From the IMG/VR virus record IMGVR_UViG_3300042673_002246: a DNA stretch of 64,000 nt; one strand, written 5' to 3'. Within the stretch, counting starts at the first letter, position 1. Every line of letters begins with the position of its first letter. The notes under the pieces were generated by a model that saw nothing but the letters and a program-made list of their open reading frames with translations, made no database searches and was not told the origin of the DNA. This stretch comes from a virus. Position numbers and translations under genes: made by a program. This document shows, piece by piece, positions 13,377-60,517 of this stretch.

Positions 13377-13637
13377 CAGTAACCCCCTGTATTTGGTTTC
13401 TCCAACTCTAACTCGTATCGGGCAGATTTATCTGACTTTCTCCCGACCACCCCGACGCTCCAATAAACGCAATAAACGCAACGCTACGCAGGGAGCCCCG
13501 GCTCCTCGCAGGCCGTGCTCGCCACCATGCTCGCAGGACTTATCTAGTTAGATAGATAAGTGTCGGCAATGGAATAAGCCCGACACACTCTCGCAAGTAT
13601 GTCGGGCTCGTCCGTGTCGGATGAGACGTGCTAGGTA

Positions 13638-13934: not shown

Positions 13935-14004
13935 TAGTAACCCCCTGTGTGTTGTGTGATTAGGACAAGTACCACGATAGTACCTGCCGTGCAGACTTAT
14001 CTAG

Positions 14005-16314: not shown

Positions 16315-16374
16315 AGTTCCCCTTTCGTTGGTACTGGTAATGGTATCGGCGTGTTGGCAGACTTATCTAGTTAG

Positions 16375-16857: not shown

Positions 16858-17196
16858 CAGTATCCCTTTCGTAGTATCCCTGTAATCAGCATAACCCACA
16901 TCACGCAGACTTATCTAGTATCTATTTACGCTTGCTCGCTCGCTGGACTTATCTAGTAAGTTCACGCCACCTTCACCTTGCGCCCTTCGCCTTCTCTCCC
17001 AGTCGCACTTCTCGCCCGACCCCACCCGACCCACCCACTTGCGCCCGACCCACCCGTTGCGCCTTCACTTCTCCCCCGACCCACCCCGTGTGGGAGCCCC
17101 GCTACCCGACCGGTCTTCCGGGTGACCTGACCGGTTTATACCGGGGCTTCTGTGGGCCATGGCCCGCAGGGGACTGAACCCCTGCGAGCTGCTGGC

Positions 17197-17421
17197 TCAG
17201 CGAGCCTTGGCCTTCCGGCGTGTGTCGCTGTCGAGATACCACCACAGCGAGCCATCGCTGTAGCCGAGCTGCTCAAGCTCTGCAGCAACTAAAGCCGAAT
17301 TGGCCCGATGCCGCTGCAGCTCTTCGTCACCATCGCCGACTTGTGTCGGGCAGAAAATGATTGCTCGAAGGATTGCCTCTTTCTGAGCTTCTGTCAGCCT
17401 CCACACAATCTCTCTTTTCAC
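17197..17421 (-). CDS. hypothetical protein
   Basis: AAAGGGG SD; variant class promoter at 17457-17485. Confidence 0.55.
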   Translation of the reverse strand: MKREIVWRLTEAQKEAILRAIIFCPTQVGDGDEELQRHRANSALVAAELEQLGYSDGSLWWYLDSDTRRKAKAR

Positions 17422-17656
17422 ATTGTCCCCTTTCGTTCGTGGCTTGCGCCAAGCGAAGCCTAGTAACAGGAGGGCAGAGTTATCTCGCGCGCAGCAGGAG
17501 CCCCGTGTTTTGTGTCTCGGTTATTCTCAACGGGGCTTCTTTGATGCGAGGAATGTTTTTCGCATCGGGGTGGTCGGCAAAAAGTTTGGCTGTTGTTGGA
17601 ATGATGTTTGCTCTCGCTACGATGTTTGCAACCTACTAGAAACGGAGAAATTGATA

Positions 17657-18076
17657 ATGACCAAAACCACGACTTCGCTAATTGGAAAGCGTATTCGTCT
17701 TGTCCGAACGAATGACCCGTACACGAAACTTGTTGCTGGCGACCTCGGAGTGATTACGAATGTGCGTGACGATTTATGGGGCGCCAGCATCGTGAGTGTT
17801 GATTGGGATAGTGGAAGCAGTCTCTCGCTAATTGAGGGTGAGGATTCTTTCACGATTATTAGTGAGCGTGAACAATTCGCAACAGCGTTAGAGAACTTCG
17901 TGCAATCCACACTGGAACTCTCGCTCGCTTGGGAGCGTCTTGACGAACAATTCGCCGAGTATCTGAACACTTTGGACTGGGGTTTCACTTCATCGCTTGA
18001 TGAGTATGTCCACGAACTCTCGCATCTGCGCCACAAGGTGCTGGACGCTATTCGTCAGTCTGCCAAAGAGAACTAG
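17657..18076 (+). CDS. DUF4314-like protein
   Basis: GKRIRLVRTNDPY...GVITNV...VDWDSGSSLSLIEGED. Confidence 0.65.
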   Translation: MTKTTTSLIGKRIRLVRTNDPYTKLVAGDLGVITNVRDDLWGASIVSVDWDSGSSLSLIEGEDSFTIISEREQFATALENFVQSTLELSLAWERLDEQFAEYLNTLDWGFTSSLDEYVHELSHLRHKVLDAIRQSAKEN

Positions 18077-18097
18077 ATAAGTCGGCAGAACAATAGT

Positions 18098-18124
18098 TCT
18101 CCCCCCGATTTCTCGGGGGGAGAG
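18098..18124. terminator. hairpin between convergent genes
   Basis: TCTCCCCCCGA-TTTC-TCGGGGGGAGA. Confidence 0.6.
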
Positions 18125-18138
18125 ACTAACTAGATAAG

Positions 18139-18600
18139 TCAGTCACCAGAGTAATTTTTGGACTCTGTGGTTTCTCCATCTAGACCACACTTGGAGCACT
18201 TGTGGTAGTTCGTTGCCGAAAAAGTGCCCAACACCGTGTTGTAGTGATGGACGATGAAGCCGACTTGTTGCCAATTGTGACCAAGCAATGCTTGGCGTAG
18301 CCAGTAGTTCTTATCGGAGTATTTCCGATAGAGCCGACCTACATACCACAATTGCTTTTGACTTAGTTCGCCTTTCTTGGCGTACTGGTCGGCAAGGCTT
18401 TTGACGAACTCAGCGTCATTCCCCTCTATCGTTGAGAGACGAACCAATTGCTCATCAAGTGTCGCTGACTGTGACCAAGCCTCTGGCGCTTCCACAGCGT
18501 GGCAATAGGTGTGTCTTGCCGAACGGCGTTGCTCGCTCGCTTGGTCGGAAAGGTCGGCAGGAATTTCCCCCGACCATCTGTCTGTAATGGTGCTCATCAT
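18139..18600 (-). CDS. hypothetical protein
   Basis: Class promoter at 18640-18668; shares F..S......G.L+.KQL segment with 16375 ORF. Confidence 0.6.
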   Translation of the reverse strand: MMSTITDRWSGEIPADLSDQASEQRRSARHTYCHAVEAPEAWSQSATLDEQLVRLSTIEGNDAEFVKSLADQYAKKGELSQKQLWYVGRLYRKYSDKNYWLRQALLGHNWQQVGFIVHHYNTVLGTFSATNYHKCSKCGLDGETTESKNYSGD

Positions 18601-18957
18601 GCTCCCCCTCTGGGGGAGACCATCTCCCCCGACAGAACCATCGTACCCAATGTGGGGCAGACTTATCTAGTCAGTTTAGATTTTGCTCACACTTATCTAG
18701 TCGGTTCATGGAACGACACGACACCGACAAAAGAACAGACAGAGAGAGCAGGTGCTCGGTCGGCAGACTTGCCCCCGACCCACCCGAACAGAAGGCGCAG
18801 CACACACTGTGTGAGCCCCGGCTAGGAACGCTTGCAGCGAAAGCTGCGGGGCTTACAGCGTTTTGGTGGCTGTCGAAACAGCCATGCCATCGGGGTAGTC
18901 GGCAGAAAGTGGAAAAAAGATTTGCTTTTTTATTGCAGTACCAGTAATGTGAAGAAC

Positions 18958-19584
18958 ATGATTACTGAACTAAACCCTGAACTACTGGAATACACCGAGA
19001 CGCATGATGTATTCGGAACGATTATTCGTCACCCATTGGTGATGTGGATAGGACCAGTAACAGACATTGACCTAATAAATAATCTTCTTGATAACAAGCG
19101 CAAGGCAACGGAAGAAGCACTAGATAAGTGTGAATGGTCACGATTTATTTATTTGCATGAGCGTCCATATCGTTTTGATGCTTTACACTTTGTTCTCAAC
19201 ACTTTTGATGAAATTACTGATGATGAGTATTGGTCACTTGTTTCGGATGTATGGATAGACACGGAGAACGCTTGGCAGAATGTTGGTTCGTGGACAGAAC
19301 TATTCGGAAGTGACCGTGCTTCACAACACTCGCTGATGAATGAAGAAGAACTGAAACTATTCGCATCGCTTGACGACACGCTGACAATTTATCGTGGATG
19401 CCGTAAGGATGTAAACGAAGAAGGTTTATCGTGGACGCTTGACAGAAGTAGGGCGAAGTGGTTCGCTGACCGTCACGGTCACGATGATAGGACGTTGCTT
19501 ACGAGAGAGATAAGCAAGAGTGAAGTAATCGCAGTGTTTACACGCAGAGGCGAAGAAGAAGTAATCGTACTTCCGTATTACTAA
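18958..19584 (+). CDS. putative ADP-ribosyltransferase-fold protein
   Basis: IYRG...LSWT...EEEVIV resembles the R-S-E triad. Confidence 0.5.
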   Translation: MITELNPELLEYTETHDVFGTIIRHPLVMWIGPVTDIDLINNLLDNKRKATEEALDKCEWSRFIYLHERPYRFDALHFVLNTFDEITDDEYWSLVSDVWIDTENAWQNVGSWTELFGSDRASQHSLMNEEELKLFASLDDTLTIYRGCRKDVNEEGLSWTLDRSRAKWFADRHGHDDRTLLTREISKSEVIAVFTRRGEEEVIVLPYY

Positions 19585-19598
19585 CTAGATAAGTGTCC

Positions 19599-19627
19599 AG
19601 ATAAATCTGCTCGTCATTTATTACCAT
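19599..19627 (+). promoter_or_regulatory. phage promoter AGATAAATCTGC-N11-TACCAT
   Basis: Plus-strand class member before a plus-strand gene. Confidence 0.7.
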
Positions 19628-19658
19628 TATTAGTACCTACTACCGAAAAGGGGAAAAT

Positions 19659-20081
19659 ATGTTGGTAACAGATGTAATCGTGAGAAGCAGGGGAACAGCG
19701 TTCTCAATAGCGCACAAATTTCAGCAAGGCGAAAAAATTGCCTTTCGCCAAGAAGGCGACAAAGATGTATTTCTCGTAGATACCGTACTTGTTTCTAATG
19801 ACGGCAATTCGGTTTATGTTGACGGCACTTGGCTTGATGCAGAGAACGATTATGAATTCGGTGGAGAGTGGGATAACGAATTTGATTCCCGTGATGCAAT
19901 TTTTGTTTCGTTCGTAGAAGTAGTAAAGCGTGAGCCTCGCAATTGGACGGAGTGCTTGCCTGCTGAATACAACAATGGCACTTACGCTTGGACGGAAGAA
20001 GTGGTCTGGGATGCAATTGCAGAATTTCACGGAGTAGATGTTTCCGAAATTGCTGACGGTGACCTTGCTTCTTATCTATGA
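19659..20081 (+). CDS. hypothetical protein
   Basis: AAAGGGG SD. Confidence 0.65.
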   Translation: MLVTDVIVRSRGTAFSIAHKFQQGEKIAFRQEGDKDVFLVDTVLVSNDGNSVYVDGTWLDAENDYEFGGEWDNEFDSRDAIFVSFVEVVKREPRNWTECLPAEYNNGTYAWTEEVVWDAIAEFHGVDVSEIADGDLASYL

Positions 20082-20096
20082 ACTAGATAAGTAATG

Positions 20097-20140
20097 AAAG
20101 ACCCACTTATCTAGTGAATAACTAGGTGAGTGGGTTTTTT
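20097..20140 (+). terminator. intrinsic terminator built from two inverted motif copies
   Basis: ACCCACTTATCTAGT-GAATA-ACTAGGTGAGTGGGT followed by a T run. Confidence 0.65.
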
Positions 20141-20320
20141 CGTATGCGTAACTAACTAGATAAGTGCATTGAGTTGGTTACTGCTACCGCAGCCCCGCCT
20201 TTCGTCGGTTTTTATGACATTGACTTATCTAGTAAATAGAAAAGCCCCCATCAGTTCCTGCGAGGACCGATGGGGGCGATTCGTACTGGGTGGAAATCGG
20301 GGGAAATCACCCAGCGAGCT

Positions 20321-21247
20321 TTAGAGACGTATGTATCCAGTCTCTGCCGGCTGTGTAACTGGCTTGATTGCTGCAACTGTCGTGTTCGTAACACTCTCGC
20401 GACGCAGCTTCATTGAGTCACGCACCTGACGCTTCTGTTCGAGCACATCGACGAGAGCAGCGAGCGATGCGTTCATCTCGCCCTTGCTAGTCGGGGTGTA
20501 CTGTCCGTAGAGGTTAAAGGTGCCGTCCGGCAAGGCTTCCTGGCTCGTAGTGAACTGCGAGAGGTCAAACCCGTAGCGAGTACTCCATTTCCAACGGAAC
20601 GTAAAGAACTCCTCGTTAGCCTTTGCTCCACTGCGCAACAAGACGCGAGAATTTGGGTGCTTGAGGACTTCGAGGAACAGCTCTTCAGTCTCGTTCATTG
20701 GGTACTTGATGACGTGATTCAGAGAGCCAGGCTTTGTTTTGGTTGCCTTCCCCATCCTGGTTGAGGTGACTGTCAACCCTGATTCGACAGCAGACTTGAT
20801 GGTTTGCAGCTTCTCACGAATTTGCTTAACCTTGCGGCCACCAGGGATTGTCAGTGCTCCACCCGTGAAGCGTGCATAGTGCTCAATCTCGCCAGCCTCA
20901 TTAGCGCGTGTGACGATTTCGATGCCTTTTGCAATGCTTCGCAGTGGGCCATTGCCACCACGCTTCTTTGACTTCTTGACGAGGAACCACTCATTCGGAG
21001 AATCGAGAAGTGTCATAATAACAACTTCGATGTTCGTCAATCGTGGGACTGCCTTGCTTGAGGTGCGACCAGTGGCCGACGATGGTGGTGCCATCTTTAC
21101 TGGTAGTGGTGCCATCCCACTAATAACCTTTGCCATTTTGACAATGGTTTGCTGGTCTACGTTAGAGGCACTCGATGTAAGTGTCTCAATGAGTTGTGCC
21201 TGTCCGGCACCGGACGGGGACTTACCCCGATGCTTTGTTGTCGCCAT
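20321..21247 (-). CDS. hypothetical protein
   Basis: 308-aa ORF with AAGGAG SD. Confidence 0.7.
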   Translation of the reverse strand: MATTKHRGKSPSGAGQAQLIETLTSSASNVDQQTIVKMAKVISGMAPLPVKMAPPSSATGRTSSKAVPRLTNIEVVIMTLLDSPNEWFLVKKSKKRGGNGPLRSIAKGIEIVTRANEAGEIEHYARFTGGALTIPGGRKVKQIREKLQTIKSAVESGLTVTSTRMGKATKTKPGSLNHVIKYPMNETEELFLEVLKHPNSRVLLRSGAKANEEFFTFRWKWSTRYGFDLSQFTTSQEALPDGTFNLYGQYTPTSKGEMNASLAALVDVLEQKRQVRDSMKLRRESVTNTTVAAIKPVTQPAETGYIRL

Positions 21248-37395: not shown

Positions 37396-40300
37396 TTATG
37401 AAGATTTTTTCTTAGTGTTTTTTATGGGCAATCGTGGCTGTCCTTCATCGCCTGACTCAAAAGCAAGTAGGGCCTTTCTGAACCGTTCAATTGTTTCCCT
37501 AGTAATTGTTTGGCCGCCATCGCCGCCGGTATCAATAAAGGCAGGACTCAGGTCATCTGCCCCAGACTCGAGCAACTCCCACAGAACGTTCAGGTTGGTT
37601 ACGGCTTTTTGGTTTTCCTGCCCACCCAAATCCCTGGCTCGCGGAAGGAATTGCGCTGTTGGGTAAATATCGGTTACATCAAGATAAAGAGTTCCGTCAT
37701 CCACCCATCCGCCGATAGCGACTCTTTCTGCTCCATCCGATGGGTTGTTGAATACTTCAGGTCCGTGAAAGTCCAGCCATGCAACGAATGTGTCAATAAG
37801 TTCTTCTGTTGGCTCTCCATCCGGAGTGAAGTCTGCAGAAGCTGGAAAAATCATTCCTTTTTTATTTCTTGCTACTGCTATACCATTTTTTATGTCGTCC
37901 ATTGTGTCTAGCTCGACAGTAAAACCGCCTTGGAATCCTTTTTGCAGAGTCTTTCTTGCCAGTAGGCGTTTCTCTGGGGTTTCAGCATATTTGACCTCAA
38001 CCTGTGATGCTATTTGCCGTATCTGCTCTGGAGAGTACTTAACTCTTTTTTTCTTCACAGTAGCTCCAGATGAAAGGCGTGGCGCACTGCTTGAATTTCG
38101 TTCCTGAGATTTTTCTGCCAGATTTCCCCACGGTTCTGTATTGCCGTCAACAAACAGTATTGAATAAACATCTTCACGCAGTTTTTTATTTAGCGCATAT
38201 GTCTTCAACTTATCATTTGGGTGAAGTATCGCAACTACTGCCTCAGCAAATGCTTCAGCTTTATTTGTATTACCGTAAGAAGAGAGCGTCATCGGACTAT
38301 CTGTAACCGAATTTATGTCAACCCCGTCAGAGAATCTGGCCATCATGTCAGGATTCATAATTACATCGTTATACTCGGACGCAACCTGCAGCGCTTGCGC
38401 GTAACGCTTATCCTGAGGGTCACCAGAACCAAAATAATGGCGATTTTTTGGCTTGCCAGCTAGTTCGACGTCTTTTAGTGCTCGGAAATGCAACCAATGT
38501 CCCCACTCATGGGTTATGACTCCAGCTATTGATTTGTCAATAGTGTTATCACGGCTCGTTACGAGTCTCGTCGGGTCCATGGTCACGTTTTCGCGTGCTG
38601 TGTCTAGCGAATTTGATTCCCTGTCGATAATCAGTCTTCGGTTAAAGGATACGGAATTAAGGAATGGAGTTGTCCTGGCGCGAACATATGGGTCTTTTGA
38701 ACCGATTCCGCGAACACTCTTTATTTGTTCAAGTTTTGACGAAACCTGAGGCAAGCTTTCATACGCCCTCGAAGCATCAGCTGTTTGCATGTAGAAAACG
38801 GGAGCACCGTGTGTCTCAAATGCCCACTTTAGTTTTGGATTTGATTCGACAGCTTGCTCAACAGCGTTACGCACAGCTTCAACTGCTTCGGGGGAGAAAT
38901 CTATATCATCCCATGGATTGTTTTTAAAATACTCGTCATGGACGGCGTTGAATTTTTTTACGTATTCTTCAGAGTCTCGTCCTCCTGGCGCAAAATCATC
39001 AATAAGCATTTCAAAGTATTGCTCTTTTGATGTTGGGACGAGCAATTCAGACATTTGTCTTGGAGTCATGCCCTTTAGCCAGTTCGACTTGCTTCTGCGA
39101 ACATTTCCGCCAAGTTCACTTTGGTCTCCGTATTTATATTTTTTCAATTGATGCGCTTTTATATCTGGCTGATTCATTTTGAGTATTGGACGCTCGCCTC
39201 CAGACGAAAGACGGTTAGAGGTTCGTCTATTTTTCCTGCCACCACGCGATAGGAGGCGATTAACCACAGTCCTTGGAGCTGACTGCTGGCTCTTGCGCTT
39301 GATGTCACGCTTCATTAAAATAGTGACGCCTTCTCCGGCTCTAAATAGCTCATCGGCTTCTTCAAAATCAACAAGCTGTTCTGCTGTTGCATTTGTTTTG
39401 AATTTTCCGTTTTTTGATTTTTCGTAGAGCGATGTTATTCTCTTCTTTTCTTCGTCCGTAAACCAGTTTCGTGATGAATCATTTACCGCATTATCTATTA
39501 CTTCTATAAATTTTTGCTGCTCGCCCTGCGACGCCCATGTAAAGCCATTTCTAGCCCAGTGTGTTGCGCCCATATAGTCGCCTTGTTTCCCAGACTGAGC
39601 GGAAGCCAATATTGTTTCTGCATCAATCTCTCTGTAAACAGCCTCGTTTCTGGCGTTGAAAATGCTCGCTATTCCATTGCCTCGAGCTGGGGCACCGACG
39701 GATAGTGAATCATGGACAATTATCTTATTTCTTCCATTGATTACAATTGTTCTGATTGAATCAGCAATTACCAGTTGGCCTTCGTTTTGCCCTTTTTCGA
39801 AGTCCTCCATATCTCCAATTCCGTCCCAACGTTCCCGCCGTGGAATTCCTGCTTGAGTAAGTCGTTTTACCGCGTCCTTGTCTTTTGTTTCAATGGTGAA
39901 TTTCAAGCTCACGCTTGTGGATGGCCGCTTTTTCACGCCTTCCATAATTCCATCGACCCCAAGGGCTTCACTTGCTTCTTCGAATTCTTCTTCGTCCATT
40001 TTCTGTACGACGACGTCTGTCGGTGAAACAACAACATCAAATGTTCTACCAAGATTTATTTTTTCTCCGTTTGTTGCCGTGACTATAACGTCGTTTCTTG
40101 TCGTTATTTCACCAGAAAACATATCTTTCGCTGCTGACTTTATTGATTCTTTGAGGGCTTTTCTTTCTTCGCTATCCGCGAGAACCTCTTCTTCGAATAC
40201 ATCGTATTCAATACCCTGAATTTTCTGAAATGAGGAATATCTTGGGTCATCTTTGGTAATCCACTCATCTTCTTTTTGGAGTTCGTCATTCAGCATCAGC

Positions 40301-43300
40301 GCAGAGAAACTCTCTACTCCTGCTCGCTGTTCGTTTGATAGGTAATTTTCCTCACTTACGACTGAATCGTAAATTTTACCTGAAGACAAACCGCGTATTT
40401 CATTAATTCTTTCCAACAAGCGATTATCTTCATTGATGTCATATTCTTCTGCAAGAATTTTACGAATTTTTCGTGCGTAGTTGTATCTCCTTCTAAATAA
40501 AGCACGAAGTTGTTTATCTTTTTCTTCATCACTTCTTCTAAGTGAGTTCGTACTAATATCCCGTATTGAGTCATATGCCAAAATAGGATTGTGAACTTCT
40601 ATTTCATAAGAATAAGTTGTACGCGTATTGCCATCTCTGTCTTTGACTTCTTTTTGTATATCCCTGAGTACGTATCCAAATTCTTTAATTGAATCATCAT
40701 CGCTAATCGCTTGAAATAAAATCCCACTGTCAGGTTTGAGTGAGGTCTCAATCCGCCCGCCATCATATTCAACTGCAGCTTTTGGAAGTTTGAATGTTTT
40801 TGGCTGAATTGCTCCGTCTTGCCCAGATGACAAGGAGTTGCGTTTATCTGGGTCATAACCCCACTCGAGCCATGAGTCACCGTTGGTGTAGATGTCTTTT
40901 GCTTTGACGCGTTTTTTGATTATTTCATAGTCCCCACGAAGAACTCCCTCACCGTGCTCAACTGCATACTGTCGTACGGGGGTCACCCAGTCACCTGGAT
41001 TTATTGATACAAGCTCAGATTCTTCCTGATTGCGTAGAGCATCTAGCTCAGATGCAAGTTTGTCGTAATAGTCGCTGTGATGGAGGTTTGTTGATACACC
41101 ACGAGGTACCCGACCATATTGGAGAATGTATTTCTGCTGTTTTTCGAGTCTTAGTATTTGCTCATCCCTCGATATCGGAACAGCCCTATACACGGTCACA
41201 TCGGCATTCGGTTTATTTCTGAAACGACGAACCACATCTACTGCGGCTGCGTCAAAACTGTCATTACCCGTTCCGTAGTAGCGGATACTTGAGGAGGAAT
41301 AAACATCATCTGGGTAAACACCAGTCAAATTGTGAAGTGGTGCTCCAGAATCTGCATCTGGGGCCATATGCATTCCTCTGTAGTCGCCATCATCTCCAGA
41401 TGAAAGACGGCGATACTCAGCGACATCTTGTTCGAATTTATCTACCGCTGCTGCAAATTTTGCATTATTTGAATTGAACTTTGCATCCCTTTTGTCTTTG
41501 TCCAAAACGTCAGTTGACCAACCATTAATGATGGCTCCATCGATAATCGCCGACATGACAAGACCGGTTGCTTCAGCATCTGCATCTGCCGTATGGTGTT
41601 TTTCACCTAAATCAACATTGAGGTATTTGGTTATGGCGGCAAGTCCATTGGACGGCTTCTTGTTCCCGTCTGCATCAAGAACGAATGGGCCGTCGTCTGT
41701 TTCTGGCGTCCAACGAGGAAGGGCCATATCTGAAATTTCTTTAGTGTCTAGGTAGCCCTTGGGTCTCCATGTAATGCCTGATTGAGATAGTGCCAGTTCG
41801 AGGACGTCTTTGTCAAATGATGCGTTTTGTACGCCGAATATTGCATCATCTCCAGCAAACTCGGCAAGTCGTTCATGTGCCTTTTTGATAGATGTTTGGG
41901 TTTTTAACCACTCATCTGTCAGCGGATTGCCATCTATGTCCTTGAGGTTCGCGCGAGACCATTCACCAAGAGATTCTTCTGGGTCCATGAAAATATTGAT
42001 GCTGTCAATTATTTTTCCGTCTTTCATCTTCACAGCACCAAACTGTGTTGGTTGGCCATTGGAAGAAGGTTTGCGGAATTCATCAAATACCAGACCAGTC
42101 GTCTCGTAATCAAAGAAAATTATTTCTCGATTTTTGTACTTGTCCTTAAATTCCTGCCATGTTTTAGCATCGCCAAATTCTTGCTCTGCTCCGCCAATAA
42201 AAGCACCGTATGTTGGTTTTCTAGGATAAGAAGGCCTGTCTGAGCCGCTAGACAAACGCTTTGAGTAGTCAATCGGTTCGTTTATGTCAGCTAGAAGCTC
42301 ATCAATGTCTACATATCCCCTTTCATCATGCATTTTGACAATTCTTGGAGTCATCGCAAACAATATGTCGTCATAATCAGTCTGGCTGAAACCCTGAGGC
42401 TTCGAGAGTCCGGCAATCGGCTTGTTTTTTCCTAGTACTTGCCACTCCCCACCAGGACCAAGGATGTCGGTAATGTCATGACCCCATTTTCCTACACCAA
42501 ACCATGATGTGCCTCTACGATGTCGTGCTGTTGCTAAATCCTGCAACCATAATGTGCGTATTTCCTTTATCATCGAGGAAAAGGCTTCAGTTGGATATCT
42601 GTCGAGATATCCAGAATATTTTGTAGCAGCTTGATACAGACCAGAGTGAGTAGACATAAAGTTCTTGTCATCACCAAGTGCAGCCAATACCGACTGCATC
42701 TCTGATGCTGCTTTTTCTTCGACTCCTAGATTTAACTCGACCTCACTGATAATCCCGTCAAGATTAAATGCATTGCCTTTTCTGGCATTTATGTCAGATA
42801 TTCTCAGGCTGTCACCAACTTCCCAGCCTTTTGTAAATTTATCGTCAGAAGCAAATGCCACGTACGGACTACCAATGATGTTCGCAATAGCTCTAACTTC
42901 GTCTTGATTCTCAATTACTGAAGACTCATCATTTGCGCGAAGCTTTTGCAATAATGAGCGATATGCTTTGACTTTGACTGACGTTGAAGCAAAATCACGG
43001 CGTAAATTTCGTGACTGTGTCTCATTTAGCTCGCGTGTATTACCTAGTATCTGTCCAGAGCCAATTCCTCCACCTTTTGTGCGTTCAGGTATGAATATTC
43101 CATCATCTAGTTCTGCTACTCCATGATGAATAAAGTACGCGTTAGTTGGTGTTGGTGAAATAAAAAGGTTATCTTGTTCTTGCTGACTCAGAGACCTTAT
43201 CGAATCAGCTTCGCTTTTAAGAACTGCAATTTTTTCTTTTGGTATTTCTTCAACATCTAGAACATTTTGTTCATCTCGTATTTTTTTGCGATTTTCTTCA

Positions 43301-44013
43301 AATTCTTGAATTCGTAGGCTTTCTTCAGCAAGATAAAGTTTTTCTTTTGCTTCCGTAACCCTACTTGACAGGGCTTTTTTAATTTCGCTTTCCCGTTGCG
43401 CAGGGTCGTTAATGTTTCTACTATCGAGGTCTTGCTCGATGAGTGCTACGTGTTCTTCACGTGTTTGATTTGCTGGATTTATTCCAGGTTTATCAATATC
43501 GATGGTGTCGACTGGCTCGTTGCTTCTTGAATTACCGCTAAGAACGACACCGTTATCTTTTCCTGTCCAATTCCCGGACCGCTCTAATTCGGCAATTGCA
43601 GCCCTTAGCCCTTCAACTCTTTTACGAGCCACAGCAACTCTTTCTTCTACTGGGCTGGTTTGTTCTGTTGTGTTTGCCTGCCCAGAAGAGAGTCGCACGG
43701 CTTGTCGAACCGCCTGGGTTTCATCGTTTGTGCCTATAAACCTTGGACGCGTTGTGCCCTCATCGACCCACCCGTCTGCATCCGGGTCGAAATTACTGCC
43801 GGTTGGTTTTCTGCTTCCTGGCACCCCTCCTGTTGGAACATCAATGTCTCCACGACGACGCCTACGTCCGCCTCCAACATTTGGCCTATCAATAAGACGA
43901 CTGCCCACATACGAGGCAAGGCGACGACCAATGGCCTTGGTTTCCTGCTCTAGCTCTCTACCTTTTCGGGAAAGCTCAAACGGAATCTCAAATTCCTCAT
44001 CTGCGTTAGACAT
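37396..44013 (-). CDS. large polyvalent protein (DEDDh exonuclease, GNAT-like, HExxH zincin and other domains)
   Basis: FFDYETTG...QNASFD...HTADAD; ARGNGIAS...WARNGF; THEWGH...AEAFAE; seven LSSG linkers. Confidence 0.8.
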   Translation of the reverse strand: MSNADEEFEIPFELSRKGRELEQETKAIGRRLASYVGSRLIDRPNVGGGRRRRRGDIDVPTGGVPGSRKPTGSNFDPDADGWVDEGTTRPRFIGTNDETQAVRQAVRLSSGQANTTEQTSPVEERVAVARKRVEGLRAAIAELERSGNWTGKDNGVVLSGNSRSNEPVDTIDIDKPGINPANQTREEHVALIEQDLDSRNINDPAQRESEIKKALSSRVTEAKEKLYLAEESLRIQEFEENRKKIRDEQNVLDVEEIPKEKIAVLKSEADSIRSLSQQEQDNLFISPTPTNAYFIHHGVAELDDGIFIPERTKGGGIGSGQILGNTRELNETQSRNLRRDFASTSVKVKAYRSLLQKLRANDESSVIENQDEVRAIANIIGSPYVAFASDDKFTKGWEVGDSLRISDINARKGNAFNLDGIISEVELNLGVEEKAASEMQSVLAALGDDKNFMSTHSGLYQAATKYSGYLDRYPTEAFSSMIKEIRTLWLQDLATARHRRGTSWFGVGKWGHDITDILGPGGEWQVLGKNKPIAGLSKPQGFSQTDYDDILFAMTPRIVKMHDERGYVDIDELLADINEPIDYSKRLSSGSDRPSYPRKPTYGAFIGGAEQEFGDAKTWQEFKDKYKNREIIFFDYETTGLVFDEFRKPSSNGQPTQFGAVKMKDGKIIDSINIFMDPEESLGEWSRANLKDIDGNPLTDEWLKTQTSIKKAHERLAEFAGDDAIFGVQNASFDKDVLELALSQSGITWRPKGYLDTKEISDMALPRWTPETDDGPFVLDADGNKKPSNGLAAITKYLNVDLGEKHHTADADAEATGLVMSAIIDGAIINGWSTDVLDKDKRDAKFNSNNAKFAAAVDKFEQDVAEYRRLSSGDDGDYRGMHMAPDADSGAPLHNLTGVYPDDVYSSSSIRYYGTGNDSFDAAAVDVVRRFRNKPNADVTVYRAVPISRDEQILRLEKQQKYILQYGRVPRGVSTNLHHSDYYDKLASELDALRNQEESELVSINPGDWVTPVRQYAVEHGEGVLRGDYEIIKKRVKAKDIYTNGDSWLEWGYDPDKRNSLSSGQDGAIQPKTFKLPKAAVEYDGGRIETSLKPDSGILFQAISDDDSIKEFGYVLRDIQKEVKDRDGNTRTTYSYEIEVHNPILAYDSIRDISTNSLRRSDEEKDKQLRALFRRRYNYARKIRKILAEEYDINEDNRLLERINEIRGLSSGKIYDSVVSEENYLSNEQRAGVESFSALMLNDELQKEDEWITKDDPRYSSFQKIQGIEYDVFEEEVLADSEERKALKESIKSAAKDMFSGEITTRNDVIVTATNGEKINLGRTFDVVVSPTDVVVQKMDEEEFEEASEALGVDGIMEGVKKRPSTSVSLKFTIETKDKDAVKRLTQAGIPRRERWDGIGDMEDFEKGQNEGQLVIADSIRTIVINGRNKIIVHDSLSVGAPARGNGIASIFNARNEAVYREIDAETILASAQSGKQGDYMGATHWARNGFTWASQGEQQKFIEVIDNAVNDSSRNWFTDEEKKRITSLYEKSKNGKFKTNATAEQLVDFEEADELFRAGEGVTILMKRDIKRKSQQSAPRTVVNRLLSRGGRKNRRTSNRLSSGGERPILKMNQPDIKAHQLKKYKYGDQSELGGNVRRSKSNWLKGMTPRQMSELLVPTSKEQYFEMLIDDFAPGGRDSEEYVKKFNAVHDEYFKNNPWDDIDFSPEAVEAVRNAVEQAVESNPKLKWAFETHGAPVFYMQTADASRAYESLPQVSSKLEQIKSVRGIGSKDPYVRARTTPFLNSVSFNRRLIIDRESNSLDTARENVTMDPTRLVTSRDNTIDKSIAGVITHEWGHWLHFRALKDVELAGKPKNRHYFGSGDPQDKRYAQALQVASEYNDVIMNPDMMARFSDGVDINSVTDSPMTLSSYGNTNKAEAFAEAVVAILHPNDKLKTYALNKKLREDVYSILFVDGNTEPWGNLAEKSQERNSSSAPRLSSGATVKKKRVKYSPEQIRQIASQVEVKYAETPEKRLLARKTLQKGFQGGFTVELDTMDDIKNGIAVARNKKGMIFPASADFTPDGEPTEELIDTFVAWLDFHGPEVFNNPSDGAERVAIGGWVDDGTLYLDVTDIYPTAQFLPRARDLGGQENQKAVTNLNVLWELLESGADDLSPAFIDTGGDGGQTITRETIERFRKALLAFESGDEGQPRLPIKNTKKKSS

Positions 44014-44074: not shown

Positions 44075-44437
44075 TTACTGAAGTCTTGTGTTGCATTTTG
44101 TGCAGGTTACGGACCATGGATACCGCTTAACCATACTTGGCGGGTGCTGGCAATCCAGGGCTCGTGTGGCGCGCTCGTTAAGGCAGTTTCGTATCCACGC
44201 AGAAAGGGATAGTTGCTCCTCGGATGAGGCTTGTTTCCAGCGCTCTCTTTCTGCTTCTGTGGTTCGGATGAGAACGGACTTATCGATTGGGGCGTCGTCT
44301 TCTTTTGCAACAGGAGCAATAGTTGGACTGATTGTGTCAGCAACTTTTTTCATTGCCGCCATCATATTTGAAGCGCTTATATCTTCACTCGTCAAAATCT
44401 TTATCTGCTTCTTCACCGTAATCCTCCTCGGATTCAT
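44075..44437 (-). CDS. ribbon-helix-helix-like DNA-binding protein
   Basis: VLIRTTEAERERWKQAS...LSLSAWIR; start uncertain. Confidence 0.5.
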   Translation of the reverse strand: MNPRRITVKKQIKILTSEDISASNMMAAMKKVADTISPTIAPVAKEDDAPIDKSVLIRTTEAERERWKQASSEEQLSLSAWIRNCLNERATRALDCQHPPSMVKRYPWSVTCTKCNTRLQ

Positions 44438-45053
44438 CCAGACCTGAAAGCTCGACTAATTCGGCATCAATTATGTCCGAACTATCTGTCCCTAGAAGAG
44501 ACTTTACTGTACTTTCGGGCAACACGCCGGATATAGCCATCAGTTCCAAAAGTTTTTTTGCTTCGGACTCTGGGTCAAAACCAATCGCCGGTCTTTCAAC
44601 TCCTGGCTGGCCGGCAATAACTGCTCGTATATTCGTATTGTTGTTGACATCCATTTGCACATTGACGTTCGTCTGTTCCATGCCAAGGAGTTTTGTCCTC
44701 CTGTCCATGATTGATAAAACCTGCTGAATAGCCTTGAGGTCTGGCTCAATTTGAATTTCCGTGCCATCCTCCTGAACCTCCCTGCGATGTTGCGTCATTG
44801 GCCAAATCGCCTGCTGTAGGTTGTCCAGCCGCTCGAGCTCAAGCCGAAGAACTTCGGGGTAAGCAAGAATTGCTTCCTTGTTCATTTTTTCCAATTGGCG
44901 CTGAACTGAACGAGTGACAGATGATGTGGATACCCCGAATCTTCTGGCTATTTCCTGCACTGACGTTCCAGCCTGGCGCATCTTAAAGATGCGTATATCG
45001 CGCTCGTTCAGAAATTCACGAGTCGTTATCGGCTTTGTTTTATCATCACTCAT
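44385..45053 (-). CDS. HTH protein, terminase-small-subunit-like
   Basis: MRQAGTSVQEIARRFGVS; LELERLD...W...AI..VL.IMDRR.KLLG. Confidence 0.6.
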   Translation of the reverse strand: MSDDKTKPITTREFLNERDIRIFKMRQAGTSVQEIARRFGVSTSSVTRSVQRQLEKMNKEAILAYPEVLRLELERLDNLQQAIWPMTQHRREVQEDGTEIQIEPDLKAIQQVLSIMDRRTKLLGMEQTNVNVQMDVNNNTNIRAVIAGQPGVERPAIGFDPESEAKKLLELMAISGVLPESTVKSLLGTDSSDIIDAELVELSGLDESEEDYGEEADKDFDE

Positions 45054-46846
45054 GTTGTTGTCTTCATCCACTCTATCACTTCGAATGGGAAGCGTTTTCC
45101 GCGTTTCATCTTCAGCGGCCAGTGGCGTTCATCGCGAGCACCTCTAAAGTGCTTAACGTCATAGACGTAATCGCCACCAGCAGTTGGGTCTGGTTGCAGG
45201 GACAAGCCAAATTCTGGCCAGCGCGACCAAACTGCAGAACCGAATGGACGCAAATCCCTTGACGTAGAACTTGTACCAAGTGGGGCATGGTGCTCAATCC
45301 ATAGAGCGCAACCATAAACAACGCGAATTGTGTCCAAGTATTTAGCCACTTCAATGGCGATTGATTCAGAAGTTCTCCCACCTGGGTCAAGAAATGCCTT
45401 ATATAGCGGCCCTATCACGAGAAGCTGTGGCCTAACTTGGTCTAGCGCATCTTCAAGGATTGCCCTGTCTGCTGCCTTGAGCAAGTCCATTCCTGATGGT
45501 TTGGAAAGCAGGTGTGCGTCGATGCTGTCAGTTCCTGCGTGGGACATGGCCTGGAGAGCAATTGAGCGTGATGTTCTTCGGATGATTCGTTCTGGGTTTT
45601 CTAGGTCAACGGTAAGCGTTGTGATTCTTGGCATTTGCTGAAAAGAAAAAGGATTTATTCCAGCAGCCGTAAGAATTCCAACCTGACGTGCAAGCATGGT
45701 TTTACCAACACCTTCTGCGGCTACGACTATCACTCTTTCGCTTTTTTCTAATAACCCAGGAATAACCCATTCATATGTGTCGCCAGTGGTTTCACTAAGA
45801 AATTCATTCCACTGAACAAGACGACCAGTATCCAGAACAAAGGACACAGTTGAAGAAGCAATGATTAGATTGCTCTTTGCAATTTTTTGTTTTGCATTTA
45901 GGTCGGTTCGCGCAATCAGTTCGCTTAGCTTCTCAATTGCGGCATCTTCTGGAGTTTGGGGCGACTCAACTTCAACCTCTTCAAAATCAATTTGCTCAAA
46001 ATCTTGATTTTCCGCGTCCTCGAAAATTGGCAGCAATCCATCGATTGAGCCACCACTCGACATGTGGTCAGTAATATCCTTGTGTGATGGGCAAACCCAT
46101 GCCTGCGCGCTGCATCCAGCTGCAGAAAGTGTCTCCACTACTTCATTGGCGTGTTTTACCCCAATTTCATCATTGTCGGCGATGACCTCTACAACGGCTC
46201 CAGCCAGTGCCTCTGTGTGGATGTCGAGCCATTTACCAGCACCGCCAGGCATTGTTGTTGCAACAATCCCCATGTCAATGAGCGTGTTGGCATCCTTTTC
46301 CCCCTCAACAACCCAAATTGGCACACCATTTTTCTTGGCTTCAAGAACTGCTGGCAAATTGTAAAGAACTTTCGGCGTATCGCCGAGAGCATAAACCCAG
46401 CCATTTCGCCCATCTGGCTTTCTCTGACTGAATGACTTCTTGCCATTTTCATCGACGTATCTAACTTTTTGAAATAGCAACTGATGATTTTCATCAACAA
46501 AGTCATACGACTCGACAAAAGTCAACTTCGGTTTCTGTGTGGGTATTGGTTTTTTTTCTGTCTTTATTGGCTTGTCTGTTGCAGCATTTCTGATGACGGG
46601 TTTTGAATCCTGCGGCATTAAGTCCGAAACGCGCAAACCAACCGAACTGCAAATTTCATCAACATTGCACGACATTGCGCGGTGGCAAGTAACTAGAACA
46701 CGGCCGTCGTTCCCCTCCGAGACAGATAAGGACGGGTTTGAGTCGTCGTTTCTGCACGGACAGCGAGCAACCCATCCGGTGCTTGTTTTACGGACGCCAT
46801 CAAGCAGTCCGAGAAAATTTTCTACTGGGTCGGATATTTGGGTCAT
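45050..46846 (-). CDS. DNA primase-helicase (Zn finger + TOPRIM + RecA-like AAA)
   Basis: ARCPC...CHR; VVEGEKD, IADND; AAEGVGKT. Confidence 0.85.
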   Translation of the reverse strand: MTQISDPVENFLGLLDGVRKTSTGWVARCPCRNDDSNPSLSVSEGNDGRVLVTCHRAMSCNVDEICSSVGLRVSDLMPQDSKPVIRNAATDKPIKTEKKPIPTQKPKLTFVESYDFVDENHQLLFQKVRYVDENGKKSFSQRKPDGRNGWVYALGDTPKVLYNLPAVLEAKKNGVPIWVVEGEKDANTLIDMGIVATTMPGGAGKWLDIHTEALAGAVVEVIADNDEIGVKHANEVVETLSAAGCSAQAWVCPSHKDITDHMSSGGSIDGLLPIFEDAENQDFEQIDFEEVEVESPQTPEDAAIEKLSELIARTDLNAKQKIAKSNLIIASSTVSFVLDTGRLVQWNEFLSETTGDTYEWVIPGLLEKSERVIVVAAEGVGKTMLARQVGILTAAGINPFSFQQMPRITTLTVDLENPERIIRRTSRSIALQAMSHAGTDSIDAHLLSKPSGMDLLKAADRAILEDALDQVRPQLLVIGPLYKAFLDPGGRTSESIAIEVAKYLDTIRVVYGCALWIEHHAPLGTSSTSRDLRPFGSAVWSRWPEFGLSLQPDPTAGGDYVYDVKHFRGARDERHWPLKMKRGKRFPFEVIEWMKTTT

Positions 46847-46850
46847 TTGG

Positions 46851-47219
46851 TCACTTGAGATTCATTCCTGGAATAAGAATTATCGGTTCACGCGGAACCA
46901 ATTGTATTTTCATTCTACGTCGCAAAGTCTTCCGTTGTCGCTCGGTTGTACCAGCCCAGATACCGTACTTTTCGTGGTAAATGCTGTATGCAAAACACTG
47001 TTCTATTTTTGCGCATTCATTGCAAATTTCAATAGCGAGCTTGGTGTTGTCTCGAGACTCGATATAGCTTTCCTTGAAATCATCGCTCTCTCGGTCAGCG
47101 TGTGGAAAGAAAATGTTTGGGCTGTAATTTTTGCATGCGCCATCAGTCGGCGGTCTATCCACTCGTACTGGAATTTCACTTTGCGTATATGGATAGCTTG
47201 GCACTGTTCCCCCAATCAT
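46851..47219 (-). CDS. whiB: WhiB-family transcription factor
   Basis: C...FFP...CNEC...C...YGIWAGT. Confidence 0.85.
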   Translation of the reverse strand: MIGGTVPSYPYTQSEIPVRVDRPPTDGACKNYSPNIFFPHADRESDDFKESYIESRDNTKLAIEICNECAKIEQCFAYSIYHEKYGIWAGTTERQRKTLRRRMKIQLVPREPIILIPGMNLK

Positions 47220-57634: not shown

Positions 57635-59050
57635 CTACTTGCTGTTCTTTGGATTTAGGCGATTCATTATCGCATCTTGGCCCGGAAACTTGGGACCCAT
57701 AACGCGTCCTGTTTCTGGCTTCTTTTCTACTCGCGGACCTGGTGCGATTGTTGGTGGCTGTGGCCTATCAGCTCCTGGTCTTTTTGATGAAGGAGTTCCA
57801 GGATTTGGTTTTTGTCCTGGTGGGTACTTCTTTCCAGGACTCGGAATACGGTCTGCTGGCTTGCTTGGTTGAGGCCTACTTGGGCTTGGGTATCTGTCGG
57901 CTGGCTTGGTGTCTTTTGGCTCCGGTTTTTGCCCAGGAGGATACTTTTTCCCTGGACTTGGATATCTGTCGGCAGGCTTCTGGTCCCTTGGTTTGGATGG
58001 TGACGGCTTTTGCCCTGGTGGGTATTTCTTTGGCGGGTCTGGATACCTATCTGCAGGCTTCTGGTCACGTGGTTTTGAAGGAGATGGCTTCTGTCCCGGA
58101 GGTGATGATGGTCCCTTTGGAAGACCGTCAGCAGATGGCTTACCATCTGCCCCTCTTAGAACCTTGTCGAAAGCTGCTCTAGCTCTTGCACGAGCATCTC
58201 TTTCTTCCTTGCTTCTATCCTCAACACGTCGATTCATTTTTATTCCCTGAAGCTTTAGCTGCTGACGAACAAATTTTCTTCTCTGCGCTTCATAGTTCGC
58301 ATCGCTTGAGCGTTGATATGGTTTTCTTTGCTCTTGTGGAGTGCCATCGAAAATCATTCCATCGCTGTCGTGGTCTACGGCTTCCGCTGGATTTGTTCCG
58401 GTAGGAGCAGCGCCGCCAGCGCGTTGGCCAATTGACATTCCAAGAGCGGCTTTGTACTCATAATCTTCAAGTTCATCTGACTTCTTCTTTGAGTTTTGGT
58501 AACGCTCAAGAAGTCTTTTCCCTTTTGCAGCAAGCGCTGCTGCATCTTCCATATTTTTGGGAACTGGTTCCCCCCATGCTGCAGCAGAAAGAGCAAGTCT
58601 TGTTGCTCTTCCTTTTTCGTCTTTCATTGGTCCACGTGGGTTGGTGAAAAATCTAGTAAGGAATGAACCCTTGCGACGCATTTTTTCCGGTGTATCAGCT
58701 GGGCCTCTTACTCCTGGCTTTAGATTTGCGCCTTCTGTTCTCTTGAAGAACGCTCTACCAGCAGCTGTCAAACCACCCTTTGGGTCTTTGAGTGGTTTTT
58801 TCCCGCCCTTTGTTTTTATGTATTCAGGAATTGCCGAGATTTGTTCCTCGGATGGGAATTCGAATTGACCGACACGATTAGAACCGTAATACTCATCGAA
58901 TATCGGCATGAAATCTTCTGATTTAAGTTCGATTAGCGTTTCATCAATTAGCTGCTCGAGCTCATCTTGTTCTTGGATATTGTTCGCTATTTGCTCTAAT
59001 TCGGCAAAAAGCTCTTCATCGCTTTTGATTTGTGACATCGCATCTTCCAT
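57635..59050 (-). CDS. putative head-associated protein with Pro/Lys-rich repeats
   Basis: Next to MCP; KDPKGGLTAAGR domain; KPADRYP/KKYPPGQKP repeats. Confidence 0.6.
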   Translation of the reverse strand: MEDAMSQIKSDEELFAELEQIANNIQEQDELEQLIDETLIELKSEDFMPIFDEYYGSNRVGQFEFPSEEQISAIPEYIKTKGGKKPLKDPKGGLTAAGRAFFKRTEGANLKPGVRGPADTPEKMRRKGSFLTRFFTNPRGPMKDEKGRATRLALSAAAWGEPVPKNMEDAAALAAKGKRLLERYQNSKKKSDELEDYEYKAALGMSIGQRAGGAAPTGTNPAEAVDHDSDGMIFDGTPQEQRKPYQRSSDANYEAQRRKFVRQQLKLQGIKMNRRVEDRSKEERDARARARAAFDKVLRGADGKPSADGLPKGPSSPPGQKPSPSKPRDQKPADRYPDPPKKYPPGQKPSPSKPRDQKPADRYPSPGKKYPPGQKPEPKDTKPADRYPSPSRPQPSKPADRIPSPGKKYPPGQKPNPGTPSSKRPGADRPQPPTIAPGPRVEKKPETGRVMGPKFPGQDAIMNRLNPKNSK

Positions 59051-59167: not shown

Positions 59168-60517
59168 TCAGCTTGGCTCGTTGTCGAAGTCAACTTTGAC
59201 GAATGCTTCTGGACGCTTGACAGCAAGGGCGAGTCTCTGCTCGGCCAAGATGACGATTGCGTTGCGCACGAAGAAGTCTGAGTGCTGTTCCGAAATTCGG
59301 ATTGAAGCCTCTTCTCTGTCGTACAGCTGAGCACCGGTACCGAATGCACCGACCAGGGCTGTTCCCTCAGCGATTGCCGGGGTGTCAACGACTGGCATTC
59401 TCCAAACGCGTGGCTCGCCACCCATTGCCACTGACACAGCGACCAAGTACTGGCCGTTTGTATCCTTGGTCAATTCGATGTCTTCCCAGTCGTTCGGGTG
59501 CAACACGATGCCGGATGGCTCGTAGTAAGCAAGGAACGAGAGGGTTGCGGCACGACGAATTGCATCAGCCTTTGTGTCTGGAACTGGTGTGTCTGCACCG
59601 TCTGACCATGCGTACTCCTGAATGTTTGGAGTCTGAAGAACACCAAGAAGGTTTTCGCCAGTTCCATCGCCATTCAAAATCTGCGAGTCTTCTAGGAGAC
59701 GCAGACCGTACATGAGTTCGTTGTCGATGATTGAACGTAGCTGTGGCTCATCGGCGAGGACGTTGCGGTGTGCAGCTTCCCAGTGTGCCAATGTGCGAAC
59801 AGGAGCCTGCTCACCAACGAATGCGAACGATGACTGCGGCTTGATACCGAAGTTGCCACCAGAACGCTCAGCAACTGAAGATGCCGAGTTAACACCATGG
59901 CCAGCCTGAAGGGTTGTGAAACCGAGCTGACGGAAGTATTCGATTACTGCTGCAGATGTTCTGCGAACTGGGAACAGGTCGCGAACACGCTTTGTACGCA
60001 TTGGAGGAAGAACCATGGCATCGCGCTGAACGTTTCCGAAGCTGCCGAGGCGGCTGTCTGTAACTAGCGTTGTTGGCAATGCTGAGTAAACGTCCTTTAC
60101 GTTGTAAGCGGTCAATGAAGCAGCGACTTGCCATGGTGCAACCATGTTTGCGCCGTTACGGCCACCATTGAGTGTCTTGAACTCAGGTGACTCGATAAAC
60201 ATTTGACCGATTGACTTGATTTCGCGTGAGCTCAATTGACTGAGGTCTGCAGCTGCTGCAGCATAGCTTGAAGCTACTGCTTCTCCCTGTGGCTGTGATG
60301 ACCATGAGTCAACATCGCCCATTGTCTGAAGGTCAGCGAGCAGTGACTTAATTGACTTAATGTCCTGCATGTTCTTGTCGAATGCTGACTTCTGCTCAGA
60401 AGAAACAACTACTGTGCCTTCCTCGATTTTGAATGAGTCCGCAATGGCTTTATTGTCTGCCATTTTGGTGCGAAGAGCTGACTGCAGCTCTTCAATTCTT
60501 GCTTTGTCTTGTGACAT
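59168..60517 (-). CDS. major capsid protein, HK97 fold
   Basis: N-terminal coiled delta domain; ILNGDGTGENLLG, VLHPNDW, FVRN...AEQRLALAVKRPEAF. Confidence 0.93.
   Translation of the reverse strand: MSQDKARIEELQSALRTKMADNKAIADSFKIEEGTVVVSSEQKSAFDKNMQDIKSIKSLLADLQTMGDVDSWSSQPQGEAVASSYAAAAADLSQLSSREIKSIGQMFIESPEFKTLNGGRNGANMVAPWQVAASLTAYNVKDVYSALPTTLVTDSRLGSFGNVQRDAMVLPPMRTKRVRDLFPVRRTSAAVIEYFRQLGFTTLQAGHGVNSASSVAERSGGNFGIKPQSSFAFVGEQAPVRTLAHWEAAHRNVLADEPQLRSIIDNELMYGLRLLEDSQILNGDGTGENLLGVLQTPNIQEYAWSDGADTPVPDTKADAIRRAATLSFLAYYEPSGIVLHPNDWEDIELTKDTNGQYLVAVSVAMGGEPRVWRMPVVDTPAIAEGTALVGAFGTGAQLYDREEASIRISEQHSDFFVRNAIVILAEQRLALAVKRPEAFVKVDFDNEPS

Follow-up and report, generated by a model that had tools for sequence, protein, structure and literature searches.

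Polyvalent proteins, giant chains in which 2-15 domains act against the host or handle DNA and zincin peptidases form the hubs, are among the largest and least understood proteins of phages. Release of their domains by embedded zincins or, rarely, by assemblin-like peptidases has been predicted; a cleavage site or junction motif is not described in that work, from which even the word 'linker' is absent (Iyer et al. 2017, PMC5512222). In the literature searched we found neither a defined site for this processing nor a description of a repeated junction peptide in giant phage proteins. Processing at a common motif is described for virion proteins: in SPN3US the prohead protease gp245 acts on ejection proteins at a consensus motif (PMC10052503). 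Here we analyse giant open reading frame (ORF) A of an uncultured virus, located in a window of 64,000 nt which is part of the 133,891-bp single contig of IMG/VR record IMGVR_UViG_3300042673_002246. We show that A is built of modules and that each of the seven copies of its peptide LSSG stands at a module boundary. Homologous giants of other viral lineages carry another peptide instead. Most likely, A is a cargo polyprotein whose LSSG joints are cut by a phage-encoded endopeptidase.

The Leu residues of the seven LSSG copies are found at aa 108, 587, 870, 1061, 1209, 1602 and 1980 of A, in exact agreement with the nucleotide positions listed by a first-pass annotation of the window. The residue preceding the motif is Arg in five copies (RLSSG), Ser in one (SLSSG) and Gly in one (GLSSG). 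From the composition of A, 0.065 copies are expected; none of 20,000 shuffles of A reached seven, the shuffle maximum being three, and every other 4-mer in A occurs at most three times. Leu is encoded by CTC, TTG or CTT, Ser by TCT, TCA, TCG or AGC, and Gly by GGG, GGC, GGA or GGT. Since the codons vary between the copies, it is the peptide and not the DNA that is conserved, as had been claimed. In the whole genome, the four ORFs with a length of 1,500 aa or more (9,187 aa) contain 15 LSSG, all of them in A and in two sister giants on the minus strand, B (2458 aa) and C (2954 aa), which also have the motif at their joints. All remaining ORFs (30,794 aa) contain one LSSG, and the density in the giant ORFs is thus about 50-fold above that in the other proteins. 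Homologues of A were sought among 5.8 billion proteins, and 45 giants of 1856-3781 aa were found to share parts of A. Around the 246 non-redundant LSSG sites of all giants, hydrophobic residues are depleted from position -7 to +7; position -1 is R in 35%, S in 28% and K in 11% of the sites, and Gly is followed by A, R or K in 63%.

All seven motifs stand at module boundaries. When A was compared with the 45 giants, 58% of the BLAST block ends (n=253) fell within 10 aa of a site as compared to 6% of random positions, and 78% within 20 aa as compared to 13%. The order of the modules differs among homologues (P0012, for example, reads leader-S3-S5-S2-S6...S7), and only a leader of about 100 aa keeps its position at the N-terminus. 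Four homologues (P0005, P0006, P0008 and P0009) are without exactly aa 1066-1208, which correspond to module S4, and are 97-99% identical to A elsewhere. In the DNA of this indel (L007:13157-13216; window 40378-40836) the crossover lies in the five nucleotides TTGTC, which sites 4 and 5 share within their Leu-Ser codons, and a single hybrid LSSG is left. Such a crossover, and module exchange exactly at the motifs, would be expected if the motif served as a DNA-level recombination linker only, in the sense of the 'linker sequences' of the modular theory of phage evolution. We find this hardly credible. The codons vary widely among the copies, which therefore offer little DNA identity to recombine on, and the conserved entity is a peptide, including its preferences for flanking residues; moreover, selection for junction-preserving recombinants may give the same picture.

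Structural models agree with this placement of the motifs. The AlphaFold model of S6 with its flanks (aa 1585-2000, 22-row alignment) has a mean predicted local distance difference test score (pLDDT) of 85 and a predicted template modelling score of 0.83. Only model residues 1-18 and 387-408 fall below a pLDDT of 50, and sites 6 and 7 lie within these two stretches. In the model of S5 (aa 1200-1615, pLDDT 73), site 6 again lies in a tail below 50. Sites 2 and 3 are outside the Pfam match of the exonuclease (aa 632-816), where the conserved S2 block (aa 588-867) begins and ends. Sites 1-4, four of the seven, are supported by the boundaries of homology blocks, and for sites 5-7 there are models in addition. 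Block ends at the sites, disorder of the linkers and the location of sites 2 and 3 together indicate that the motifs do not fall inside folded domains; a position inside such domains had been named by the first-pass annotation as fatal to its protease-site hypothesis. Its view that the motifs bracket modules is borne out by the block ends, the reordering, the S4 indel and the linkers at sites 6 and 7, and the modules prove to be shuffled independently.

In about 30 homologous giants LSSG ranks first among the 4-mers, at up to 11 copies, and further IMG/VR giants have variants such as LASG, LTSG and FSSG. More distant homologues are without LSSG, and each carries another repeated peptide: GSKS(T/S)T is found eight times in P0045, and other classes are GMRS, SG(K/R)MST, LSGS(MS) and GL(A/K/R)S(S/R)T; L(A/T/R)SG is a further alternative to LSSG. 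One junction can be aligned across all lineages, namely the start of the exonuclease, P-x-Y-P-R-K-P, which is preceded by the class peptide at a distance of 3-7 residues (RLSSG-SDR, GSKS-TTK, GMRS-QSGPKP, SGKMS-TGASPVR, LSGSMS-TSEK, GLASST-TDGPTK and RLASG-RIDENEK). Among the virus records compared, which are 57-91% complete (57-84% for the GSKSTT, GMRS and SGxMST classes), the GMRS phage has 15 copies of its motif in a protease-fused protein of 3658 aa and 11, 11 and 4 copies in three others, and the GSKSTT phage (G001) has 8, 5, 3, 2, 2 and 1 copies in six proteins. One of its motif-bearing proteins resembles a tape measure (L033:10576-15183, with weak glycine-zipper and M15 signals) and has two class motifs in the variable central part; its homologue in the genome studied here, a tape-measure-like ORF of 1570 aa (genome 101817-106529, L002/L003), has neither LSSG nor SSG. 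Within a genome all joints of all giants agree, and between lineages the whole set is replaced, which is the pattern expected of co-evolution with one trans-acting reader. By these comparisons of sequence, the junction peptide probably co-evolves with such a reader, most simply a protease. The capsid and head-protease proteins of phages with different codes are still about 70-80% identical. The L100 and L101 giants, which have an S6-like zincin, show no clear repeated motif and are uninformative in this respect. The largest member seen is a single frame of 7202 aa (L078:8828-30433) with two S6-type zincins and 17 L(S/A)SG motifs.

The leader of A links this protein with giant C and with head assembly. 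Residues 22-102 of A are 69% identical to residues 537-619 of C, both segments end just before the first SSG site, and within the genome a hidden Markov model of the leader matches A and C only (E 2e-45 and 1e-36). The leader contains a core of the form D-x-D-x-D-G-W-x-[DE]-E-G-T. At the start of giant C stands a Peptidase_S78 prohead protease (aa 31-174), behind which ArdC-N, MPTase-PolyVal and a UvrD helicase follow. The GSKSTT phage encodes its S78 protease in a separate ORF of 468 aa (L014:8571-9977), without leader or motif, which ends 24 nt before the start of a leader-bearing giant of 3693 aa (10001-21079). Protease and cargo are thus separate in one phage and fused in C, which points to a fusion or a split between relatives. 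Since the leader is common to A and the protease-fused C, and the S78 gene of the GSKSTT phage immediately precedes that of the leader-bearing giant, the leader can be regarded as a cargo tag linked with the head-assembly module. By analogy with the capsid-targeting sequences of T4, it may direct A to the procapsid.

In the mechanism we propose, A consists of an N-terminal leader of 80-100 aa and seven independently folding, exchangeable modules. Each joint is a short, hydrophobic-poor linker with [R/S/K]-L-S-S-G-[A/R/K], most likely the recognition site of a phage-encoded endopeptidase, and cuts at these sites would yield the leader and seven separate proteins; the joints of B and C are marked by the identical code. 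Cleavage itself, encapsidation by way of the leader and delivery into the host would belong to this mechanism. If the joints are cut, three kinds of enzyme come into question: the embedded zincin S6, acting in cis or in trans, to which we give a fair share of the probability that still falls short of an even chance; the S78 prohead protease inside the procapsid, which is possible at somewhat lower weight; and another phage zincin (of the HEFxH type found in B, or an ArdC MPTase) or a host enzyme, which appears rather doubtful.

All 31 homologues of the LSSG class contain S6, and none of the 14 others does. Searches of the GSKSTT, GMRS and SGxMST records (57-84% complete) did not reveal it, and in the present material it occurs only together with LxSG-type motifs. 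It is flanked by its own sites, as are the embedded proteases of viral polyproteins. In an LSSG/FSSG phage (G004), the S6-type zincin is a stand-alone gene of 357 aa among small genes (L108:6384-7454; record 92383-93453) and has neither leader nor junction sites, which is easier to reconcile with a processing enzyme acting in trans than with an injected effector. Anthrax lethal factor (LF) and the PPEPs, to which the fold of S6 is compared below, are strict endopeptidases of defined linear peptides. The class motifs in the tape-measure-like protein of the GSKSTT phage would likewise favour S6 over a prohead-confined enzyme, as a tape measure is not a component of the prohead. Against S6 stands the occurrence of other phage zincins, the B-type HEFxH zincin in every lineage and the ArdC MPTase in many. 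A further-reaching form of this idea, a self-contained polyprotein system in which S6 within the cargo reads a code of 4-6 residues that is at the same time the exchange point for enzyme cassettes and has changed as a set on at least five occasions, is conceivable and at present doubtful.

Cleavage by the S78 prohead protease only, in a procapsid into which the leader brings A and with the cut after L-S-S, is unlikely; this estimate is nested in that for the preferred explanation, as the share of S78 in cleavage by a phage-encoded enzyme. S78 is universal among these phages and fused to cargo in C, the segment of C to which the leader of A is 69% identical ends its protease/scaffold part, and site 1 follows directly after the leader. 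In SPN3US, gp245 cuts ejection proteins at a consensus motif and at several places per propeptide (PMC10052503). Moreover, the major capsid protein encoded in the window contains Q-L-S-S/R, whose LSS (window 60227-60235, aa 95-97) lies where an N-terminal helical delta-like domain of about 100 aa would meet the N-arm; from its position, this is a possible maturation site. In five related phages the corresponding residues are L-T-S-R, A-T-S-F, G-R-T-S-F or lack Ser. The position thus stays [L/A/R]-[S/T]-S, with the Ser kept, in five of six lineages, whatever the cargo motif, and the putative capsid site does not co-vary with the class motif. Similarly, the S78 domain is nearly invariant among LSSG, GSKSTT, GMRS and SGxMST phages: it is 76-82% identical across motif classes, with identical conserved blocks, and is no more diverged than within the LSSG class. 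Class-specific substitutions could not be called in it, given identical catalytic blocks and too few sequences per class. The constancy of S78 and of the capsid site weakens S78 as a specific reader. In addition, the protease of the GSKSTT phage is a separate protein without leader or motif, and the tape-measure-like protein of this phage should never meet a prohead-confined protease. With points for and against both enzymes, we leave the choice open, S6 being slightly ahead.

It may also be that the motif stays uncut and serves as a docking peptide for a packaging or unfolding factor, as a site of Ser modification or as a hinge for threading through the tail like beads on a string. All motif classes are rich in Ser and Gly and have an adjacent basic residue, as in consensus sites of kinases, and cleavage itself is so far deduced. 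Some polyvalent proteins, such as N4 vRNAP, ArdC and TraC1, are reported to be transferred or packaged uncut (Iyer et al. 2017, PMC5512222). We nevertheless consider an uncut motif improbable. One docking tag per chain would do, yet every joint including that between leader and cargo has one; a plain hinge has no need for four to six invariant residues or for all copies to switch together between lineages; and peptidases are carried by each giant or genome.

Cleavage by a protease of the host, after injection or in the infected cell, with motif classes that track host lineages, has a precedent in staphylococcal phage 80alpha, whose capsid and scaffold are cut by the host protease Prp at a common motif. 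The constancy of the phage S78 across motif classes would be in line with it. Among the genes of the virus studied here are those of a major head protein, a WhiB-like regulator and a primase. The closest cultured capsid proteins, at 49% identity, are those of Brevibacterium phage Cantare and Gordonia phage GMA6, so that an actinobacterial host is likely as judged from these matches. As the capsid proteins of the compared phages are 68-80% identical, their hosts are probably related, yet the motifs are unrelated. Furthermore, several peptidases are encoded within the very phage proteins. A host protease as the cutting enzyme is therefore very improbable.

Cleavage by a phage-encoded endopeptidase thus remains our preferred explanation, and several observations weigh against it. 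Common descent confounds the co-occurrence of S6 and motif, and no class-specific peptidase was identified in the other motif classes, whose records are incomplete. The invariance of the S78 domain, the lack of co-variation at the capsid site and the polyvalent proteins reported as uncut count here as well, and in the model of S5 site 5 adjoins a helix instead of a long disordered stretch. Finally, the nearest cultured relatives are distant, and the head module of GMA6, the only one inspected, is without such a giant. Against cultured phages, gene A gave no match by megablast, and tblastn of A returned only isolated exonuclease and S3 modules. The first-pass annotation had taken LSSG for a dedicated protease site, cut by the zincin within A or by a head protease, which releases injected effectors. 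The joints, the linkers and the class peptides in relatives speak in favour of such a site; the candidate proteases for it are the own zincin, S78 and another enzyme.

The coordinates of A, its sites and modules, and the capsid gene are compiled in Table 1. Five modules had been named before; the count has to be revised to seven modules and an N-terminal leader, S1 and S4 having escaped naming.

Table 1. Features of giant ORF A and the major capsid gene (window coordinates; the slash marks the possible cut)
Feature	Position	Strand	Remarks
Giant ORF A	37396..44013	-	single uninterrupted 2205-codon frame; leader and seven modules joined by LSSG linkers
Leader S0 (aa 1-107)	43693..44013	-	always N-terminal in stand-alone homologues
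Site 1 RLSSG (aa 107-111)	43681..43695	-	leader/cargo joint
Module S1 (aa 112-585)	42259..43680	-	475 aa; 23-38% identity in several lineages
Site 2 RLSSG (aa 586-590)	42244..42258	-	3 residues upstream of the conserved P-x-Y-P-R-K-P start of the exonuclease
Module S2 (aa 591-868)	41410..42243	-	DEDDh 3'-5' exonuclease, RNase_T family
Site 3 RLSSG (aa 869-873)	41395..41409	-	homology-block boundary
Module S3 (aa 874-1059)	40837..41394	-	phrog_2579 family
Site 4 SLSSG (aa 1060-1064)	40822..40836	-	homology-block boundary
Module S4 (aa 1065-1207)	40393..40821	-	143-aa cassette
Site 5 GLSSG (aa 1208-1212)	40378..40392	-	in the model, coil and first turn ahead of the first helix of S5
Module S5 (aa 1213-1600)	39214..40377	-	GNAT-fold acetyltransferase-like C-terminal half, R-x-x-G-x-A motif
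Site 6 RLSSG (aa 1601-1605)	39199..39213	-	low-confidence linker in both models
Module S6 (aa 1606-1978)	38080..39198	-	zincin metallopeptidase, HEWGH at 38497-38511
Site 7 RLSSG (aa 1979-1983)	38065..38079	-	low-confidence linker, model residues 387-408 with pLDDT <50
Module S7 (aa 1984-2205)	37399..38064	-	conserved GGW..DG..YLDV
Major capsid protein	59168..60517	-	Q-L-S-S/R-E-I-K-S-I-G at aa 94-104

Concerning the identity of the modules, S2 is confirmed as a DEDDh exonuclease by its match to PF00929, which at 34.8 bits exceeds the cut-off of 24 and extends over aa 632-816 and model positions 1-160 of 164; it also matches phrog_192. The earlier call of this module holds on the curated Pfam threshold. 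S6 is confirmed as a zincin, again as first proposed from its HEWGH motif, by the AlphaFold model and by fold matches to LF and PPEPs. H251, E252, H255, E336 and E340, which comprise the HExxH residues and the downstream Glu ligand candidates, are invariant in 22 sequences. The S6 profile matches the catalytic centre of anthrax LF weakly (E 0.007), and the best Foldseek matches are LF and PPEP-1 (E 0.02). In an exhaustive structural scan of 48,161 chains, LF ranked first (Z 8.6 over 182 aa), followed by PPEP-3 and PPEP-2 (Z 7.0); these values are near the stated noise of the tool, and those below about 8 can reflect the general zincin fold alone. A has no Pfam match to M34/ATLF, and only four of the scanned S6 homologues touch Peptidase_Mx. 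We therefore read S6 as a putative LF/PPEP-like zincin endopeptidase and a possible member of M34.

The proposal of a GNAT-like module is supported by fold for S5. Every match listed for it by Foldseek is an acetyltransferase, in most cases a GNAT (NatD E 5.7e-4, prob 1.0), and the modelled fold is accompanied by a putative acetyl-CoA motif, R-G-N-G-I-A in A and Q-G-Q-G-I-G in the consensus, both of the form (Q/R)-x-x-G-x-(G/A). No Pfam GNAT match was obtained in A or in nine S5 homologues; the Pfam GNAT matches of P0010 and P0026 belong to modules other than S5. S3 belongs to phrog_2579, which is labelled 'ParB C-terminal domain' and has stand-alone relatives in Vibrio and Rhodococcus phages. 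It had been suspected to have an ART fold. No ART model matched it, however: there was no Pfam match at E up to 5 and no PDB profile match, an ART lead in the Atlas reached only 0.75, and the counterpart of S3 in P0048 (1059-1196) adjoins the ART-PolyVal domain (1213-1364) instead of lying inside it. S1 has no Pfam, PDB or Atlas match; a similarity to TRAP1 in the PDB profile search (E 0.004) concerned a helical stretch and was judged to be due to chance. Profile searches of S3 and S7 against PDB sequences gave nothing credible, and no match was found for S4 and S7.

Homologues of A carry ART-PolyVal, LPD22, MPTase-PolyVal and ArdcN (P0045 and P0048; some of these also in sister giant C) as well as GNATs. 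In A itself, no Pfam match to ART-PolyVal, MPTase-PolyVal, LPD or ArdC-N was found. On account of these signature domains in homologues, the family is placed among the polyvalent proteins; the seven modules of A with exonuclease, GNAT fold and zincin accord with the earlier assignment to this group.

Some features of neighbouring genes may be added. Directly upstream of A, on the minus strand (44385-47219), lie a WhiB-like regulator (46851-47219), a primase (45050-46846) and an ORF of 228 aa labelled HTH/'RNase E'; A is therefore about 21 kb away from the nearest sister giant B, which belongs to the head-gene block, despite the common code. Residues 1-1229 of B (L001:1331-8707, minus strand) have no leader and no junction motif; near aa 590 they include the zincin motif HEFSH. 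Giants of every motif class (L014, L016, L084, L086, L091, L093 and L100) again contain this N-terminal block together with its zincin. Just downstream of the capsid gene, an ORF of 471 aa (57635-59050, minus strand) contains D-H-D-S-D-G-M-I-F-D-G-T, which resembles the leader core, and about 20-aa repeats (PGQKPSPSKPRDQKPADRYP) in its C-terminal half.

The processing of polyvalent proteins, predicted without a defined site, obtains in the junction peptide a concrete and cheap test of cleavage. The peptide moreover gives exact construct boundaries for the orphan modules S1, S3, S4 and S7, and junction peptides let module boundaries be read from sequence in hundreds of metagenomic giants. If cleavage is real, the lineages would provide orthogonal pairs of protease and site and a natural case of rapid co-evolution of a protease with all its sites.

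As compared to known systems, polyvalent proteins and the processing of virion proteins are known kinds; new are the code at the junctions, its rewriting from lineage to lineage and the behaviour of the modules as cassettes. A resembles polyvalent proteins in its chain of domains with a zincin and differs from them in that every joint has one short peptide, which is switched as a set and bounds the modules as cassettes, and in that the place of the MuF-type virion-targeting domain is taken by a conserved N-terminal leader. C has its assemblin-like peptidase at the N-terminus, the examples of Iyer et al. at the C-terminus. Internal head proteins are also processed by gp21 of T4 (IPI-III and Alt) and by gp175 of phiKZ, proteases of the gp21 family in these two phages cutting after Glu. 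With T4, phiKZ and SPN3US, the system studied here would have in common an N-terminal targeting propeptide removed at a short consensus motif, the use of one motif by several substrates and multiple cuts per chain. The substrates there are single proteins with one propeptide as opposed to a chain of seven enzymes; here, in contrast, the candidate protease is an HK97-type S78 enzyme or a zincin, and the motif varies among close relatives. S6 shares HExxH and a downstream Glu with MEROPS family M34 (LF, PPEP-1/-2/-3), whereas its identity to these proteins is only 12-15% and it has an extra N-terminal helical half. Polyproteins of eukaryotic RNA viruses and retroviruses, too, unite many enzymes in one chain with an embedded protease, here S6, flanked by the general site, and with a site that co-evolves with the lineage. 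There is no relation in sequence or fold, however; the present virus is a tailed phage with double-stranded DNA in which cleavage is predicted, and A, one of about 140 gene products, is probably cargo and not replication machinery.

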